Assembly: GCF_058153355.1 (NCBI RefSeq)
Contig: NZ_CM177019.1
Direction: 5' to 3' (one strand)
DNA length: 64,000 nt
How positions within the stretch are numbered: position 1 is the first letter of the stretch; every line of letters begins with the position of its first letter. The position numbers and the translations under genes were made by a program. The notes beneath the pieces were generated by a model. The model did not search any database, was not told where the DNA came from, and worked only from the letters and a program-made list of their open reading frames with translations. This document shows positions 31,913-39,222 of the stretch, in pieces.

Positions 31913-32246
31913 CACGATGTCTGAATCCTTGCCAAAAGTACTGCTGGCACTATACCAGAGAATGAACATACTGGATTGCTCCAGTGTTGTGAATGAACCG
32001 TAACGCAATAAAACATATTTACTGCAATTCTTTGGCCGGTTCTTTTACGTACAACGGAAACCTGCCACTTAAACGGTGAGTACTGGCGATAAAAATCCAA
32101 TAAAACGTTCAAGGCAAAAGTAAGAAACAGACAAAGCAAAGGCCGCTCACGATATAGCCAGATAAATGACGGGGATCAATTGGCTTACCCGCGATAAAAT
32201 GTTACCATTCTGTTACTTTTATGTATAAGAACAGGTAAGCCCTACC

Positions 32247-33647
32247 ATGCCACATTCCTACGATTACGATGCCATAGTAATAGGTTCCGGCCCCGGCGGC
32301 GAAGGCGCTGCAATGGGCCTGGTTAAGCAAGGTGCGCGCGTCGCAGTTATCGAGCGTTATCAAAATGTTGGCGGCGGTTGCACCCACTGGGGCACCATCC
32401 CGTCGAAAGCTCTCCGTCACGCCGTCAGCCGCATTATAGAATTTAATCAAAACCCACTTTACAGTGACCATTCCCGACTGCTCCGCTCTTCTTTTGCCGA
32501 TATCCTTAACCATGCCGATAACGTGATTAATCAACAAACGCGTATGCGTCAGGGATTTTACGAACGTAATCACTGTGAAATATTGCAGGGGAACGCTCGC
32601 TTTGTTGACGAGCATACGTTGGCGCTGGATTGCCCGGACGGCAGCGTCGAAACACTAACCGCTGAAAAATTTGTTATTGCCTGTGGTTCTCGCCCTTATC
32701 ATCCAACAGATGTTGATTTCACCCATCCACGCATTTACGACAGCGACTCAATTCTTAGCATGCACCACGAACCGCGCCATGTACTTATCTATGGTGCTGG
32801 AGTGATCGGCTGTGAATATGCGTCGATCTTCCGCGGTATGGATGTAAAAGTAGATCTGATCAATACCCGCGATCGCCTGCTGGCATTTCTCGATCAAGAG
32901 ATGTCAGATTCTCTCTCCTATCACTTCTGGAACAGTGGTGTAGTGATTCGTCACAACGAAGAGTACGAGAAGATCGAAGGCTGTGACGACGGTGTGATCA
33001 TGCATCTGAAGTCAGGTAAAAAACTGAAAGCTGACTGTCTGCTCTATGCCAACGGTCGCACCGGTAATACCGATTCGCTAGCGTTACAGAACATTGGGCT
33101 GGAAACTGACAGCCGCGGACAACTTAAAGTCAACAGCATGTACCAGACCGCACAGCCGCACGTTTACGCGGTGGGCGACGTGATTGGTTATCCGAGCCTG
33201 GCGTCGGCGGCCTATGACCAGGGGCGCATTGCCGCGCAGGCGCTGGTGAAAGGCGAAGCCACCGCACATCTGATTGAAGATATCCCTACCGGTATTTACA
33301 CCATCCCGGAAATCAGCTCTGTGGGCAAAACCGAACAGCAGCTGACCGCGATGAAAGTGCCATATGAAGTGGGCCGCGCCCAGTTCAAACATCTGGCACG
33401 CGCACAAATCGTCGGCATGAACGTGGGCACGCTGAAAATTTTGTTCCATCGGGAAACAAAAGAGATTCTGGGCATTCACTGCTTTGGCGAGCGCGCTGCC
33501 GAAATTATTCATATCGGTCAGGCGATTATGGAACAGAAAGGTGGCGGCAACACTATTGAGTACTTCGTCAACACCACCTTTAACTACCCGACGATGGCGG
33601 AAGCCTATCGGGTAGCCGCGTTAAACGGTTTAAACCGCCTGTTTTAA
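32247..33647 (+). CDS. sthA: soluble pyridine nucleotide transhydrogenase
   Basis: 466-aa flavoprotein, GSGPGG FAD motif near N-terminus. Confidence 0.96.
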
Positions 33648-34547
33648 CACTTTATCGAAATGGCCATCCATTCTTGCGCGGATGGCCTCTGCCAGCTGCT
33701 CATAGCGGCTGCGCAGCGGTGAGCCCGGACGATAAACCAGGCCAATAGTGCGGCGTGGTTCCGGCTTAATACACGGCAAATAAACAACCCCATCGCGTTT
33801 GCGCTCCGGCGGCACAGCCAGTGCAGGCAGTAAAGTGATCCCGCTACCTGCCGCCACCATGTTGCGCAGAGTTTCCAGGCTGGTCGCGCGGAAGTGTGTA
33901 TCTTCATCCGCCCCGGCTTCAAAGCAGAAACCCATTGCCTGATCGCGCAAACAGTGACCATCTTCCAGCATCAGCAGTTTTTCCCCTGCCAGATCGGCCA
34001 TCGGTACGCATTCGCGGTTCGCCCACGGGTGATCTTCATAGATAGCCAGCAGCATTGGTTCATCAAACAATGGCACTTCAATGAATGCTTCGCTCTCTTT
34101 CACCAGCGCGAGGATCACGCAATCGAGTTTGCCGCTGTCCAGTTGCGCCAGTAACTGGTGGGTCTGTGCTTCATGCAGATACATTTCCAGCTTTGGAAAG
34201 GTCTGGTGCAGCATCGGGATAATATGCGGTAACAGGTAAGGCCCAACCGTTGGAATCAAACCAATATGCAGCGGTCCGGACATCGTCTCGCCCTGCTGGC
34301 TTGCCATCTCTTTAAGGACTTTCACCTCACGCAGCACGGTACGCGCCTGATCCACCAGCAGCATTCCCGCCTGGGTGAACAACACTTTACGGCTGGTCCG
34401 CTCCAGCAACATCACGCCCAGCTCATCTTCCAGCTTACGAATTTGCCCGCTAAGCGTCGGCTGGCTAACGTGGCAGGAGTCTGCCGCACGCCGAAAATGG
34501 CGGTGTTCAGCCAATGCCACCAGGTACTCAAGATCACGAATATTCAT
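33630..34547 (-). CDS. oxyR: LysR-family hydrogen peroxide-inducible regulator OxyR (start at [12 protein letters not shown])
   Basis: 305-aa OxyR with redox cysteines; 18-bp convergent 3' overlap with sthA. Confidence 0.96.
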
Positions 34548-34642
34548 TATCCATCCTCCATCGCCACGATAGTTCATGGCGATAGGTAGCATAGCAACGA
34601 ACGATTATCCCTATCAAGCATTCTGACTGATAATTGCTCACA

Positions 34643-34751
34643 GAAACGGAGCGGCACCTCTTTTAACCCTTGAAGTCACTGCCCGTTTCGAGAGTTTCTC
34701 AACTCGAATAACTAAAGCCAACGTGAACTTTTGCGGATCCCCAGGATCCGC
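34643..34751 (+). ncRNA. oxyS: OxyS small regulatory RNA, divergent from oxyR, ending in a GC hairpin plus T8 terminator (34733-34760)
   Basis: Sequence GAAACGGAGCGGCACCTCTTTTAACCCTTGAAGTCACTGCCCGTTTCGAGAGTTTCTCAACTCGAATAACTAAAGCCAACGTGAACTTTTGCGGATC...CAGGATCCGC followed by TTTTTTTT. Confidence 0.9.
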
Positions 34752-34798
34752 TTTTTTTTATTCTACAGGCCCACAGCAAGAGAGCCTGATAGTAACAG

Positions 34799-36082
34799 TT
34801 ACTCAATCCGATCTTTGACAATAAAGAAGTAACACAGCGCCCCGGTGAACGTCACACAGGCCGCGATAACCAGCGCCAGATTAAACGAGTGCGTGGTATC
34901 CACTACCCAACCGGTTACGATCGGAGCAAAGGAAGCAAAAACAAAACTGCCAAAGTTTTGAATCCCGGCGATGGAAGCCACTTTTGTTTCTGACACCATC
35001 ACCTGCACCAGTCCCCATGCAGATGTTCCCGCGAAATGCACGCAGAACAGCGCCATTGAGATAAACGCTACAGCCTGGGCTGGCGAGGAGGATTGCACGA
35101 CCAGCAACGTGCCTAATGCCGACATCATCAAACCGCAGACAATAGCCGTTTTACGCGTCTTCGCCAGGTCGTAGCCTTTTTTCGCCAGCCGATCGACAAC
35201 AATACCGTTAACCCACATCCCGACCGCCGCCGCGAGGAAAGGAATCGCCGCCACCCAACCGGTTTTCGCCAGACTGAAGCCTTGCTCGGCTTGTAAATAA
35301 CCGGGTAACCACGCGATGTAGAGCCAACCGGTATAATTGACGCCAGAGAAACCTAAAATCATCCCCCAGGTTGTCCGATGCTTAAACAGCGCCAGCCACT
35401 CGCTAAATTGTAATTGTGGACGCGGTTTAACCGGCGCGGAGAGATAGGTCCGTTCTTCGTCGGTCAGGACAAACTGCGCCCGGTTGCGATACCACGCGTA
35501 CCAACAGATCCCAACCAGAATCCCCGCCACGCCGATGATGACGAACATTGCCCGCCAGCCCCATGCCAGCTGCATCAATACAAGAGCAGGAGGCGCAATA
35601 GCCTGACCGATAACGGTAGATGAGTTAAAAATCCCCAGCGCCGTGCCGCGTTCTTTTTGCGCATACCAGTCGGTGATCGACTTTACTCCCGCAGGCATAA
35701 ATGGCGCTTCGCCAATACCCAGACCGATACGCATTAAAATAAAGTGGCTAAAAGAATTAACCATTCCTGTTAATGCCTGCATTAATGACCAGAATATTAA
35801 GCCTGCGCCTAAAACTATTCGTGGGCCAAAGCGGTCTAGCAAAATACCGGAAGGGAGTTGTGAAAAACCATAAGACAGAGAAAATGCAGAAAGCAAAACG
35901 CCAAATTCTGTCGCCGATAATCCTAACTCGCCACGAATCGCTTCGCCTGCCACGCTCAATGACGAACGGTCGAGGAAATTAACGATCCCCGCCATAAATA
36001 ATAAAACCAGCGTTACTGTCTGAATACGACGAATCCGTTGCGGTTTATTACCCGCAACACTGGTTGACACATCAACGTCCAT
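34799..36082 (-). CDS. MFS transporter, anion:cation symporter (DgoT/ExuT-like hexuronate or sugar-acid permease) family; not present at this locus in K-12
   Basis: 427-aa ORF with 12 predicted hydrophobic segments and a good SD (AGGAGCTAAAAATG). Confidence 0.75.
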   Translation of the reverse strand: MDVDVSTSVAGNKPQRIRRIQTVTLVLLFMAGIVNFLDRSSLSVAGEAIRGELGLSATEFGVLLSAFSLSYGFSQLPSGILLDRFGPRIVLGAGLIFWSLMQALTGMVNSFSHFILMRIGLGIGEAPFMPAGVKSITDWYAQKERGTALGIFNSSTVIGQAIAPPALVLMQLAWGWRAMFVIIGVAGILVGICWYAWYRNRAQFVLTDEERTYLSAPVKPRPQLQFSEWLALFKHRTTWGMILGFSGVNYTGWLYIAWLPGYLQAEQGFSLAKTGWVAAIPFLAAAVGMWVNGIVVDRLAKKGYDLAKTRKTAIVCGLMMSALGTLLVVQSSSPAQAVAFISMALFCVHFAGTSAWGLVQVMVSETKVASIAGIQNFGSFVFASFAPIVTGWVVDTTHSFNLALVIAACVTFTGALCYFFIVKDRIE

Positions 36083-36148
36083 TTTTAGCTCCTTGAGCGG
36101 AATTAATCGATTTGCTGACTATTCAGAAAATAATTAAGCGAACCGTTA

Positions 36149-37363
36149 TTACCAGTTCCACAATGTGCCATCTTCCAGTCGTGCGACGGGGAGATACGCC
36201 GGGTCATACGGATATTTCGCCGCCAGTTTCTCATCGAAAGAAATACCCAGCCCCGGTTCATCGCCTGGGTGCATATAACCTTCATCGAAGCGCCAGCTGT
36301 GCGGGAAGACTTCAAGCATTTGTTCGGAATAGCCCATGTACTCCTGAACGCCAAAGTTTGGCACCCAGAGGTCAAAATGCAGCGCCGCCGCATGACAAAC
36401 AGGCGATAAATCTGAAGGGCCATGCGAACCGGTACGTACCTGATAAAGCGATGCAAAATCGGCAATCCGTCGCATCCCGGTAATGCCGCCTGCATGGGTA
36501 ATCGTCGTGCGAATATAGTCAATCAGCTGCTCTTCGATTAACTGCTTGCAGTCCCAGATACTGTTAAACACTTCACCGACCGCAATCGGCGTCACAGTAT
36601 GCTGGCGAATCAGACGAAAACATTCCTGGTTCTCGGCAGGCGTCGGATCTTCCATCCAGAACAGGCGGTAATCCTCAATGCTCTTCCCAAAGCGCGCCGC
36701 TTCGATAGGAGTCAGGCGATGGTGCATGTCATGCAACAGATGTTCGTTAAAACCGAACTTATTACGCACCGCTTCAAATAACTTCGGTGTAAAATCGAGA
36801 TACTTTTCTGAAGACCACAACTGCTCTTCCGGCCACAGGCCTTTGGTTGCCGGTTCATACGCCAGTCCTTTGCCCTTCGCCAGGCCATAAGTTGTTTGCA
36901 TACCCGGTACACCACACTGCACACGAATCGCCTTAAAGCCCATCTGCTGGTGCTTTGCATAGTCTTCAAGGACTTCATCAATCGTGCGCCCGGTGGTATG
37001 GCAATAAACCATCACGCCTTCACGAGAAGCCCCACCAAGCAGTTGATACAATGGCATATTTGCCGCTTTGGCTTTGATATCCCACAACGCCATATCAATG
37101 GCAGAAATGGCCGACATCGTGACGGGGCCACGTCGCCAGTAAGCACCTTTATAAAAGAATTGCCAGATATCTTCGATACGGCTGGCATCGCGGCCAATTA
37201 ATTGTGGACAAAGATGATCTTTCAGATAAGAAGCGACCGACAATTCGCGACCATTTAATGTGGCATCTCCCAATCCACAAAGTCCGCTTGCAGTGGTTAT
37301 TTTAAGCGTAACGAAATTACGTCCTGGGCAAGTAACAAAAACATCTGCAGCAATAATTTTCAT
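36149..37363 (-). CDS. enolase-superfamily sugar-acid dehydratase, D-mannonate dehydratase (ManD)/RspA family (start at [17 protein letters not shown])
   Basis: 404-aa ORF with strong resemblance to RspA/ManD-type dehydratases; SD CAGGAGATTGCAATAATG. Confidence 0.75.
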
Positions 37364-37848
37364 TATTGCAATCTCCTGTGTTGTAAATAGACGCTTCAAA
37401 CTTAATTTTACGCCTACTACCATACAAGAGAGAAAGAGCGATTATTCAACCGTGATCACATTAAAAATAAAAATTTCCGCCGAGGAGAAAAACCCCCCTC
37501 AAAAACCACCTGAATAATTAACCATCATCGTTAAAACAACACGTTAAATAATCACATAACAAACTCCATTAATCATTAAAAATGAGCGCAGCAATAGAAA
37601 TGAATTATATTCAATTAATTAAAATATGTATTGATTGATGTATTGAAAATATGATTTTCATGGGGAGAGTGAAGGTAAAGAAGACGCAAGAATAAAAAGG
37701 AATATGACAAATAATAGTTCTGGTTGGGCGTTAAATTTAAGGTCACCAGAATGCTGACAAATTTCTGCCTGAGGCAGTCCGCCTACGTAGTGTCGCTACT
37801 TTATAGGCGTGGTAAGCTCCCCATTTTCAGGGGAGCAATATAAACCAA

Positions 37849-39222
37849 TTACTCCAACCGCGCCTGCGCAAAAGCAATCGCCTGCGCCACCTGCTGCGGG
37901 GAGACGCCGCCTTTTGCTGCACGCTTGTCGAGGCACGATTGCAGCGACAGAATCGGATAGACATCTTCGCCAATCACCTGACTGAATTTCTGCAACTCAC
38001 TGAGCGGCAGTTCTTCCAGCGGTTTGCCCTGACGAATGGCTTCCACCACCGCTTCACCCACAATATGGTGCGCCTCGCGGAACGGCACACCTTTCGCCAC
38101 CAGGTAATCCGCCAGTTCAGTGGCGTTCGCATACCCCTGCTGCGCCGCTTCCTGGCAACGCGGACGTTTCACCTGAATCCCGTCCAGCACCAGCGCCGCC
38201 ATATGCAGGCAGTCCAGCCAGGTATCGAGCGCGTCGAACAGACCTTCTTTATCTTCCTGCATATCTTTGTTATAGGCCAGCGGCAGACCTTTCAGCGTCA
38301 TCATCATGCCAGTCAACGCGCCCTGAACACGACCGCATTTACCCCGAATCAGCTCCAGCGCATCCGGGTTTTTCTTCTGCGGCATTAATGATGAACCGGA
38401 AGTAACACGATCAGAAAGCTCCACAAAACCCGCTTCGCCGGTGTTAAAGAAAATCAGATCTTCGGCAAAACGCGACAAATGCACCATACCGATAGCGGCG
38501 GCAGAAAGCAGTTCCAGCACGTGGTCGCGGTCAGAAACGCTGTCGAGACTGTTACGGGTCGCCGAGGCAAAGCCCAGCCAGCCTGCTAACTGTTCACGGT
38601 CGATTTCATAGGCCGTTCCCGCCAGTGCGCCACAGCCTAACGGGCTGACATCCAGACGCTTAAGCGCATCCTGCAAACGGCTTTCATCACGCGCCAGCAT
38701 CTCAACATAGGCCAGGCACCAGTGCGCAAACGTCACCGGCTGGGCGCGTTGCAGGTGAGTATAACCAGGCATTACCGCGTCCTGATTATTCTGCGCGGTC
38801 TCGACCAGAGCGGATTGTAACTGTCGGTTAGCCGTCAGCAACTCGCTAACGGTATCCTTGCACCACAGTTTCAGGTCAGTCGCTACCTGATCATTACGGC
38901 TACGCCCGGTATGCAATTTTTTGCCTAACTGGCCCACTTTGTCGATCAGTTTGCCTTCCACCCAGCTATGGATATCTTCGGCGTCGCTTTCAAGAATTTG
39001 TTGTGGCCTGGCGCGAACATCTTCCAGCAGCACGTTCAGCGCCTCTTCCAGTTGCGCCTGCTCTTCTGCGGTTAACACGCCGACCGTGACCAGGGCTTTG
39101 GACCAGGCCACAGAGCCAACAATATCCTGCTCCGCCAGACGGTAATCAAAGCGCAGTGAGTCGTTGAATTGTTTGAACCGTTGATCTGCTGCCTGGGTAA
39201 AACGCCCGCCCCAAAGTGCCAT
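37849..39222 (-). CDS. argH: argininosuccinate lyase
   Basis: 457-aa [37 protein letters not shown]... Confidence 0.96.

Follow-up and report, generated by a model that had tools for sequence, protein, structure and literature searches.

We analysed a stretch of 64,000 nucleotides (64 kb) of contig NZ_CM177019.1 (NCBI RefSeq assembly GCF_058153355.1), which we refer to in full as the window. Between its convergent oxyS and argH genes lies a pair of minus-strand genes, manD, coding for a predicted D-mannonate dehydratase of the ManD/RspA type, and a gene for a permease of the major facilitator superfamily (MFS). The two genes and their upstream leader, called the module here, are an old paralogous offshoot of an enterobacterial rsp-type sugar-acid locus. 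The features of the segment, given with the evidence on which each is placed, are listed below.

34643-34752, plus strand: oxyS small RNA gene (Rfam RF00035, 137.4 bits).
34733-34751: oxyS terminator hairpin, followed by a run of eight T, the left border of the insertion (terminator scan).
34753-34798, minus strand: spacer of 46 bp from the MFS stop codon to the oxyS terminator.
34799-36082, minus strand: MFS permease gene, 427 aa (open reading frame, ORF; orthologue of CFT073 c4921).
36083-36148, minus strand: manD-MFS intergenic spacer of 66 bp, with an AAGGAG ribosome-binding site.
36149-37363, minus strand: manD dehydratase gene, 404 aa (ORF; orthologue of CFT073 c4920).
37364-37848: leader of 485 bp upstream of manD.
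37373-37377, minus strand: AGGAG, ribosome-binding site of manD (sequence).
About 37393-37395, minus strand: predicted transcription start (homology to the mapped rspA start).
37399-37404, minus strand: predicted -10 element TAAGTT (positional homologue of TAGATT of rspA).
37414-37428, minus strand: conserved block CTTGTATGGTAGTAG, overlapping the predicted -35 element (within TTGTAT; promoter alignment).
37454-37460, minus strand: TGTGATC, a CRP-like half-site at about -61.5 from the predicted start (promoter alignment).
37470-37760: AT-rich core of the leader, a candidate H-NS target (composition).
37765-37809: remnant of a repetitive extragenic palindromic (REP) element 3' of argH (leader alignment and fold).
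37816-37836, minus strand: hairpin GCTCCCC-TGAAAAT-GGGGAGC just 3' of the argH stop codon (fold).
37849-39222, minus strand: argH, the stop codon of which is the right border of the insertion (ORF and annotation of matching records).

The interval from the end of oxyS to the argH stop codon (34753-37848) measures 3,096 bp, compared with 54 bp in K-12 MG1655. In the allele alignment the match to the empty-site allele ends directly 3' of the OxyS T-run, which gives the left junction, and the right junction lies a few bases at most from the argH stop codon; the long allele lacks the 54 bp of the short one, which have been replaced and not split by the insertion. The first-pass annotation of this DNA had described the gene pair and its AT-rich leader, and its coordinates for both are confirmed by ORFs, Rfam and base composition. 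The gene families it proposed are those returned by NCBIfam and PDB matches, and its statement that K-12 is without the pair is borne out by the 54-bp gap of MG1655. A disrupted dehydratase pseudogene, the case it saw as damaging, is not what we find, both ORFs being intact. Among the ORFs of the segment there is no regulator, dehydrogenase or aldolase gene, and the only RNA gene matched by Rfam is OxyS at its edge. Insertion sequences, integrase genes, border repeats and terminal inverted repeats were looked for at the segment edges and gave only chance matches. Other carriers match the 46-bp spacer next to oxyS without a difference over 44-46 bp, and the terminator scan of 34753-34798 gave no convincing minus-strand terminator for the MFS gene. 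On the minus strand, AAAAGTT and not a U-run comes after the oxyS hairpin, and manD-MFS transcripts reading through past 34733-34801 would run antisense to OxyS.

The product of manD matches the NCBIfam equivalog NF043051 'D-mannonate dehydratase ManD' at 731.5 bits over residues 1-404 (cut-off 550) and is 91.6% identical to Escherichia coli RspA. It aligns without gaps with PDB structures 4IL2 (E. coli RspA) and 4E4F (Pectobacterium). Residues R147, Y159, D212, H214, E238 and E264 are present and are the same as in RspA 4IL2; from studies of N. aromaticivorans ManD we take these to be the Asp/Glu/Glu ligands of Mg2+, a Tyr-Arg base dyad and a His acid. The manD product belongs to the ManD/RspA subgroup of the enolase superfamily and is a predicted D-mannonate dehydratase. 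The ORF list also contains an alternative in-frame ATG at 37423 which would lengthen the dehydratase. We place the start at 37363 because AGGAG lies upstream of it, the homologues begin with MKI(I/V), and it is 3' of the predicted transcription start. In the protein tree, ManD proteins of the argH locus form a clade of their own outside every rsp-locus RspA; E. coli RspA shares 93-95% identity with the RspA proteins of other genera and 91-92% with ManD of the argH locus.

The best family match of the permease is TIGR00893, the D-galactonate transporter subfamily of the anion:cation symporter (ACS) family, at 275 bits (E = 8e-82) over the full length. Among solved structures DgoT is nearest (6E9N, E = 4e-57, residues 13-424). 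D38, R39 and E125 of the permease align with D46, R47 and E133 of DgoT, positions which are presumably the proton-coupling Asp/Arg of transmembrane helix 1 and Glu of transmembrane helix 4. Names of homologues are 'MFS transporter' throughout, apart from one automatic 'L-galactonate transporter'. The protein is predicted to be an H+-coupled sugar-acid importer of the ACS type: with DgoT, one of the E. coli sugar-acid:H+ symporters of this family (TC 2.A.1.14), it shares homology over the full length as well as the coupling positions, whereas its identity to DgoT is distant.

The leader upstream of manD is low in G+C content (GC), with 0.353 over 37364-37848, 0.31-0.34 between about 37300 and 37750, and 0.316 in the core, compared with 0.517 for the window. 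The first-pass annotation had described the leader as strongly AT-rich, and its low GC stands; uniform AT-richness does not. About 90 bp on the argH side consist of the hairpin and the REP remnant, and about 110 bp on the manD side are a conserved promoter of the rspA type. The leader core gave no Rfam match and contains no credible ORF or regulator remnant. Within it, a block at 37527-37546, ATCGTTAAAACAACACGTTA (minus strand TAACGTGTTGTTTTAACGAT), is conserved from Escherichia to Citrobacter sp. R56, and the surrounding leader is not; this block may be an additional protein-binding site. Compared with CFT073, B19 and Escherichia sp. E1V33, 13 bp are deleted from the REP remnant of the window (GGATAAGGCGTTTACGCC... 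is shortened).

The promoter on the manD side has the architecture of that of E. coli rspA. The gap between TGTGATC and CTTGTATGGTAGTAG is 33 nt in both, and the -10 elements are equidistant as well. The 15-mer CTTGTATGGTAGTAG is unique in the window (0.06 matches expected with at most two mismatches). When 487 kb of fetched sequence was scanned for the 12-mer TTGTATGGTAGT with one mismatch allowed, it was found only before rspA, MFS and ydfI genes and before manD of the window, except for one chance match at window position 1944. The block is present in 25 promoters of about ten genera (rspA, MFS, ydfI), with TGTGATC conserved in 22 of the 25, and their common profile is TGTGATC, a T-rich tract, (A/C)T(A/T)C-TTGTATGGTAGT and, at a fixed distance, a -10-like element TAAnTT. 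It is invariant in all Escherichia carriers that were aligned. Of 1,864 carriers, 1,073 match the window with at least 99% identity over the promoter-proximal 117 bp; since the MFS coding sequence reaches this level far less often (160 of 1,869), constraint on the promoter is suggested. The 66-bp spacer between manD and the MFS gene contains neither TTGTATGGTAGT nor another promoter motif, and the two genes are therefore probably co-transcribed. We infer that the TGTGA half-site belongs to CRP, for which about -61.5 is the classical class I position. A class II CRP promoter, with TATGGT in the role of the -10 element, had been considered and was dropped for the class-I-like reading, given the mapped rspA start (PMC8249747).

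In K-12, rspAB is repressed by RspR (YdfH), the mapped start of rspA transcription lies about 30 bp 5' of the ATG, and the footprint of RspR on the rspA promoter covers 31 bp, with the palindrome ATACnnGTAT, ATACTTGTAT, at its centre (Shimada, Ishihama et al., PMC8249747). This is the one known RspR target of K-12 (PMC8249747), a strain without the module. The window reads TCTCTTGTAT at the corresponding position and agrees with the footprinted rspA site in the right half and in the 8 bases that follow it. Of the 5,426 complete E. coli genomes, 5,417 have rspR; the gene lies outside the 64-kb window, and the strain of the window almost certainly has it. The first-pass annotation noted that no cognate regulator, dehydrogenase or aldolase accompanies the pair. 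This holds locally, and it does not hold for the genome at large: the module carries the promoter/operator block of rspA, and the genes for RspR, RspB and YdfI are found elsewhere. We consider control of the module by RspR and CRP, as predicted from the promoter, to be a possibility that falls just short of an even chance. In the rsp region of K-12 the motif occurs before rspA only, with no second RspR-type site, and the block is absent upstream of K-12 ydfI. The ydfI promoters of other genera (L009 14533-14600, L014 11820-11890, L015 13193-13260) have the block as TTGTATGG(T/C)AGT and, about 25 nt past it, GTCATACCAATTG, which resembles a half-site of the UxuR/ExuR type.

With the MFS protein as query, a scan of a single genome from each species gave 21 loci, and the 13 non-Escherichia loci, mostly of Enterobacteriaceae, were examined. 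An MFS orthologue (82-89% identical) adjoins rspA, on either side, in 11 of these 13, and the 11 loci are orthologous to speG-ynfA-rspA-rspB-ydfJ-ydfI-rspR-ydfG. The corresponding order in K-12 is ynfA-rspA-rspB-(Qin)-ydfJ-ydfI-rspR-ydfG, and the E. coli rsp locus ynfA-rspA-rspB has no MFS gene of the module type. According to NCBIfam the neighbours are an RspB-type Zn-dependent oxidoreductase, a metabolite:H+ symporter, an enzyme of the fructuronate reductase family (ydfI) and a GntR-type regulator; an uxaC-like glucuronate isomerase gene and a GPH transporter gene are added in three loci (L007, L012 and L013). The closest relatives of both module genes are genes of enterobacterial rsp loci (84-94% amino acid identity). 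In the MFS tree, the permease of the window falls within the enterobacterial group, beside an Enterobacter copy of the order manD-MFS that adjoins rspR. Two rspA-like genes about 6 kb apart were seen in Enterobacter sp. kpr-6 (L007 2-454 and 6712-7926); one precedes uxaC-GPH transporter-ydfI and the other is part of a manD-MFS pair next to rspR, arranged as in the E. coli module.

Gene families (an rspA-like gene, and an ACS MFS gene that adjoins rspA in Enterobacter, Klebsiella, Raoultella, Lelliottia, Siccibacter and Atlantibacter) and the promoter/operator block TGTGATC-N33-CTTGTATGGTAGT are thus common to the module and the rsp locus, whereas the module is physically unlinked from rspR, rspB and ydfI. 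ManD of the window and RspA, annotated in E. coli as 'starvation-sensing protein' (4IL2) and placed in the low-efficiency ManD subgroup, are alike in their length of 404 residues, their catalytic residues and their promoter architecture. They differ in location (argH/oxyS for manD, ynfA/rspB for rspA) and in the gene 3' of them (a permease gene and the RspB dehydrogenase gene, respectively). They differ also in occurrence, since the module is present in about 34% of E. coli and rspA was annotated in all three rsp loci inspected, which do not include that of CFT073.

Distribution in E. coli was assessed by megablast of window 34500-38100 against the 5,426 complete genomes. The full segment is present in 1,860 of them (~34%) and the flanks alone match in the remainder, about 566 bp apart in the examples listed. 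The MFS gene is found in 1,869 genomes, normally in a single copy; it is chromosomal in every case, no plasmid carries it, and all records that were listed or inspected have the module between argH and oxyR. Carriers include CFT073, O104:H4 and O18:H1 strains and an avian pathogenic E. coli (APEC) O78:H4 strain; the segment is absent from K-12 and O157:H7 strains. In CFT073 argH is c4919 and oxyR is c4922, and the pair is therefore c4920/c4921. RefSeq annotates the pair as 'manD: D-mannonate dehydratase ManD' and 'MFS transporter'. The module is thus an already annotated accessory operon of ordinary accessory metabolism, and the only new element is its predicted regulatory and evolutionary tie to the rsp/RspR system. 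The allele of the window is itself infrequent: identity of at least 99% is reached in only about 150-160 genomes, among them a strain of sequence type (ST) 648, and most carriers are about 97.5% identical to it. MFS matches align over at least 80% of the length in 1,800 of the 1,869 genomes (96%); coverage is below 80% in 69, at least one of which is a spurious match of 41 bp. In strain DSM 101139 (L003 3299-4306) the allele is of the window type, 99.7% identical, and has an in-frame MFS deletion of 276 bp (1,008 compared with 1,284 nt).

The short allele is ancestral and the module a true insertion, because the argH terminator of the short allele, GAGCCTGGC...GCCGGGCTTTTTT, is homologous in K-12, Escherichia sp. 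E4694, the Citrobacter freundii complex and Salmonella enterica. Loss from K-12 by deletion, which the co-divergence of the module with its flanks had suggested, is rejected, since the empty allele bears this terminator of the Salmonella/Citrobacter type and could have regained it only by recombination with an empty allele. In the long allele the hairpin at 37816-37836 takes the place of the ancestral argH terminator and was brought or created by the insertion. E. whittamii and Escherichia sp. E1V33 also have the module between argH and oxyS, and in Escherichia sp. MOD1-EC7003, whose contig stops inside manD, it can be seen on the oxyR side alone. Citrobacter sp. R56 has a degraded copy at this site (L020 7208-8000), with promoter block and MFS gene intact and with manD cut down to a short fusion of ~35 codons from its start and ~15 from its end; the MFS gene of this strain is 78% identical to that of the window at the nucleotide level and the flanks about 84%.

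Nucleotide identity of the module follows that of its surroundings. Compared with CFT073 and B19, the MFS gene and manD are 97.4-97.9% identical and oxyR and sthA 97.2-97.9%; the module and flank values are 94.2-96.5% and 93.6-94.0% for Escherichia sp. E1V33, and 93.1-93.9% and 92.9-93.8% for E. whittamii. Synonymous divergence (dS) relative to E. whittamii is 0.376 for manD, 0.266 for the MFS gene, 0.308 for oxyR and 0.286 for argH, and in most comparisons (CFT073, E1V33, E. whittamii) dS of the module is about that of the flanks. Ratios of nonsynonymous to synonymous divergence (dN/dS) against three Escherichia lineages, with dS spanning 0.09-0.38, are 0.011-0.035 for manD and 0.011-0.027 for the MFS gene, as low as those of argH and oxyR, and the module proteins are therefore under constraint by purifying selection. 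The insertion is old and was present before the splits among the carriers E. coli, E. whittamii and Escherichia sp. E1V33, and the module has been a lasting presence/absence polymorphism in Escherichia since. B19, a carrier, and K-12, which is empty, are 99.3% identical in argH and 98.9% in oxyR. Long and short alleles therefore segregate in close backgrounds, which implies allele replacement through homologous recombination. Taken together, the identity, integrity, age and rsp ancestry of the module can be stated with high confidence.

These results bear on the suggestion of the first-pass annotation that the segment is horizontally acquired DNA that may be xenogeneically silenced. Its insertion stands. 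A recent or xenogeneic origin does not agree with a native coding GC (0.500 for manD and 0.513 for the MFS gene, beside 0.517 for the window), flank-like dS, purifying selection, closest relatives among enterobacterial rsp genes, the REP remnant in the leader, or the lack of mobility genes and border repeats. An island with H-NS on its AT-rich leader and a normally unexpressed gene pair would fit the GC of 0.316 over the ~290 bp of the leader core, the ancestral empty site, which means that DNA was inserted, and a chitinase gene in the Citrobacter freundii complex, which indicates that the spot accepts foreign DNA. We nevertheless judge it improbable: among Escherichia species the module diverges in step with its flanks, dN/dS values of about 0.02 point to proteins in use, and the promoter-proximal 117 bp are of the rspA type and unusually conserved. 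Moreover, H-NS on the distal leader would be compatible with the rsp-derived operon favored below and would not exclude it. The chitinase gene, coding for a protein of 814 aa of family GH18, lies with an AT-rich leader between argH and oxyS in GCA_033188835.1 (L032 2074-4518), and the spacer is empty in a sister genome (L033). In Enterobacteriaceae this spacer, bounded by convergent argH and oxyS terminators, therefore appears to have taken up insertions repeatedly.

A second possibility, improbable to a similar degree, is that a low-efficiency dehydratase and an orphan permease form a redundant relic, with no role of its own and drifting to loss. This would agree with its absence from about two thirds of E. 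coli genomes, with the truncated MFS gene of ST648-type strains, and with the deletion of manD in Citrobacter sp. R56; dehydration of D-mannonate is also covered by UxuA, and the low-efficiency ManD proteins are said to be without an assigned role. Drift to loss is difficult to reconcile with the very low dN/dS of both genes at dS of 0.09-0.38, with a promoter block invariant in the aligned Escherichia carriers, or with MFS genes of at least 80% of full length in 1,800 of 1,869 genomes. Least probable of the alternatives is a different chemistry, for instance on D-gluconate, L-idonate, L-galactonate or D-altronate, independent of rsp and under a regulator other than RspR: the separate clade of argH-locus ManD proteins, the UniRef name 'bifunctional D-altronate/D-mannonate dehydratase', the half-conserved RspR palindrome and the D-mannonate versus D-gluconate specificities among which ManD subgroup members, as Wichelecki et al. 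are said to have found in 2014, are split would allow it, whereas an identity of 91-94% to RspA proteins, with the active-site and lid regions almost the same, the embedding of orthologous MFS genes with rspA, rspB and ydfI (plus the uxaC-like gene of L007, L012 and L013) and the promoter block common to the module and those rsp genes argue otherwise.

The reading that we favor, with moderate confidence, is that of an old rsp-derived manD-MFS operon with an rspA-type promoter, serving the uptake and dehydration of a sugar acid. The pair manD-MFS was inserted long ago into the spacer of the convergent argH and oxyS terminators. On this reading, the permease would import a hexonate-type sugar acid together with protons, and the Mg2+-dependent ManD would dehydrate D-mannonate to 2-keto-3-deoxy-D-gluconate (KDG), which the core enzymes KdgK and Eda would carry into central metabolism; the upstream oxidoreductases RspB, YdfI and UxuB would be encoded elsewhere. 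Transcription would begin about 30 nt 5' of manD, at the rspA-type promoter, would probably be activated via the CRP half-site at about -61.5, and would probably be repressed in trans by the core GntR-family regulator RspR (YdfH) at the CTTGTATGGTAGT block. The substrate, which according to the first-pass annotation could not be inferred, is partly accessible from comparative context, which points to D-mannonate and the rsp sugar-acid pathway; our assignment of a D-mannonate or L-gulonate-type substrate, derived from sequence comparison, is tentative and holds well less than an even chance.

The predicted reaction, D-mannonate to KDG, is also that of the UxuA/UxuB hexuronate pathway, which likewise feeds KdgK and Eda. 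The module enzyme belongs to the enolase superfamily, whereas UxuA is unrelated to it and is an efficient dehydratase. UxuA is under UxuR/ExuR control (PMC5934670).

Several observations weigh against an operon for sugar-acid use under rsp-type control. The RspR palindrome is conserved only in its right half, the left half reading TCTC in the window in place of ATAC, and MFS and ydfI promoters of other genera have xTTC here; because of this degenerate half, in a promoter otherwise built as that of rspA, binding of RspR could be weak or absent. The TIGR00893 score of the permease is below the cut-off of 395, and its close family includes no member with a known substrate. Both genes show decay in places, namely the 276-bp MFS deletion, which is shared by ST648 and 20AR0192 strains, and the manD stub of Citrobacter sp. 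R56. D-mannonate is already served by UxuA in E. coli. RspA-type ManD proteins were reportedly found by Wichelecki et al. in 2014 to be of low catalytic efficiency, and the Gerlt laboratory is said to have been unable to assign a physiological role to low-efficiency ManD proteins. Wichelecki et al. reportedly also described, in the same year, the rsp enzymes of CFT073 as a route from L-gulonate through D-fructuronate and D-mannonate to KDG and called it cryptic. CFT073 carries the module, which would therefore be insufficient for growth under the conditions of those authors. The literature searched contains no paper on the gene pair and no expression, binding or growth data for c4920/c4921. 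Finally, the genomic SELEX (systematic evolution of ligands by exponential enrichment) that gave a single RspR target was run on K-12, where the module is absent, and is uninformative either way.

A further two-gene insert was observed nearby in other strains, between sthA and fabR in CFT073 (L027 25897-28422) and Escherichia sp. E4694 (L034 7631-10156). It consists of genes for an M20 aminoacylase and a citrate-proton-symporter-like MFS protein. In the window sthA adjoins fabR (~32008-32247) and this insert is absent.

A more specific proposal, which we regard as somewhat unlikely, is that the module belongs to the RspR regulon as an unlinked member regulated in trans, and that it supplies an importer, which the cryptic rsp pathway of E. 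coli lacks, together with a second dehydratase, its polymorphism deciding the use of sugar acids. The practical value of these findings is modest, in that a segment resembling a fresh island turns out to be an old, well-annotated accessory operon. If the proposal is true, the long-unexplained rsp ('starvation-sensing') pathway would gain a candidate transporter, and the argH/oxyS polymorphism would set which E. coli take up and burn L-gulonate, D-mannonate or a relative of these. If RspR controls the module, the regulon of a regulator described as having a single target in K-12 would be strain-dependent.

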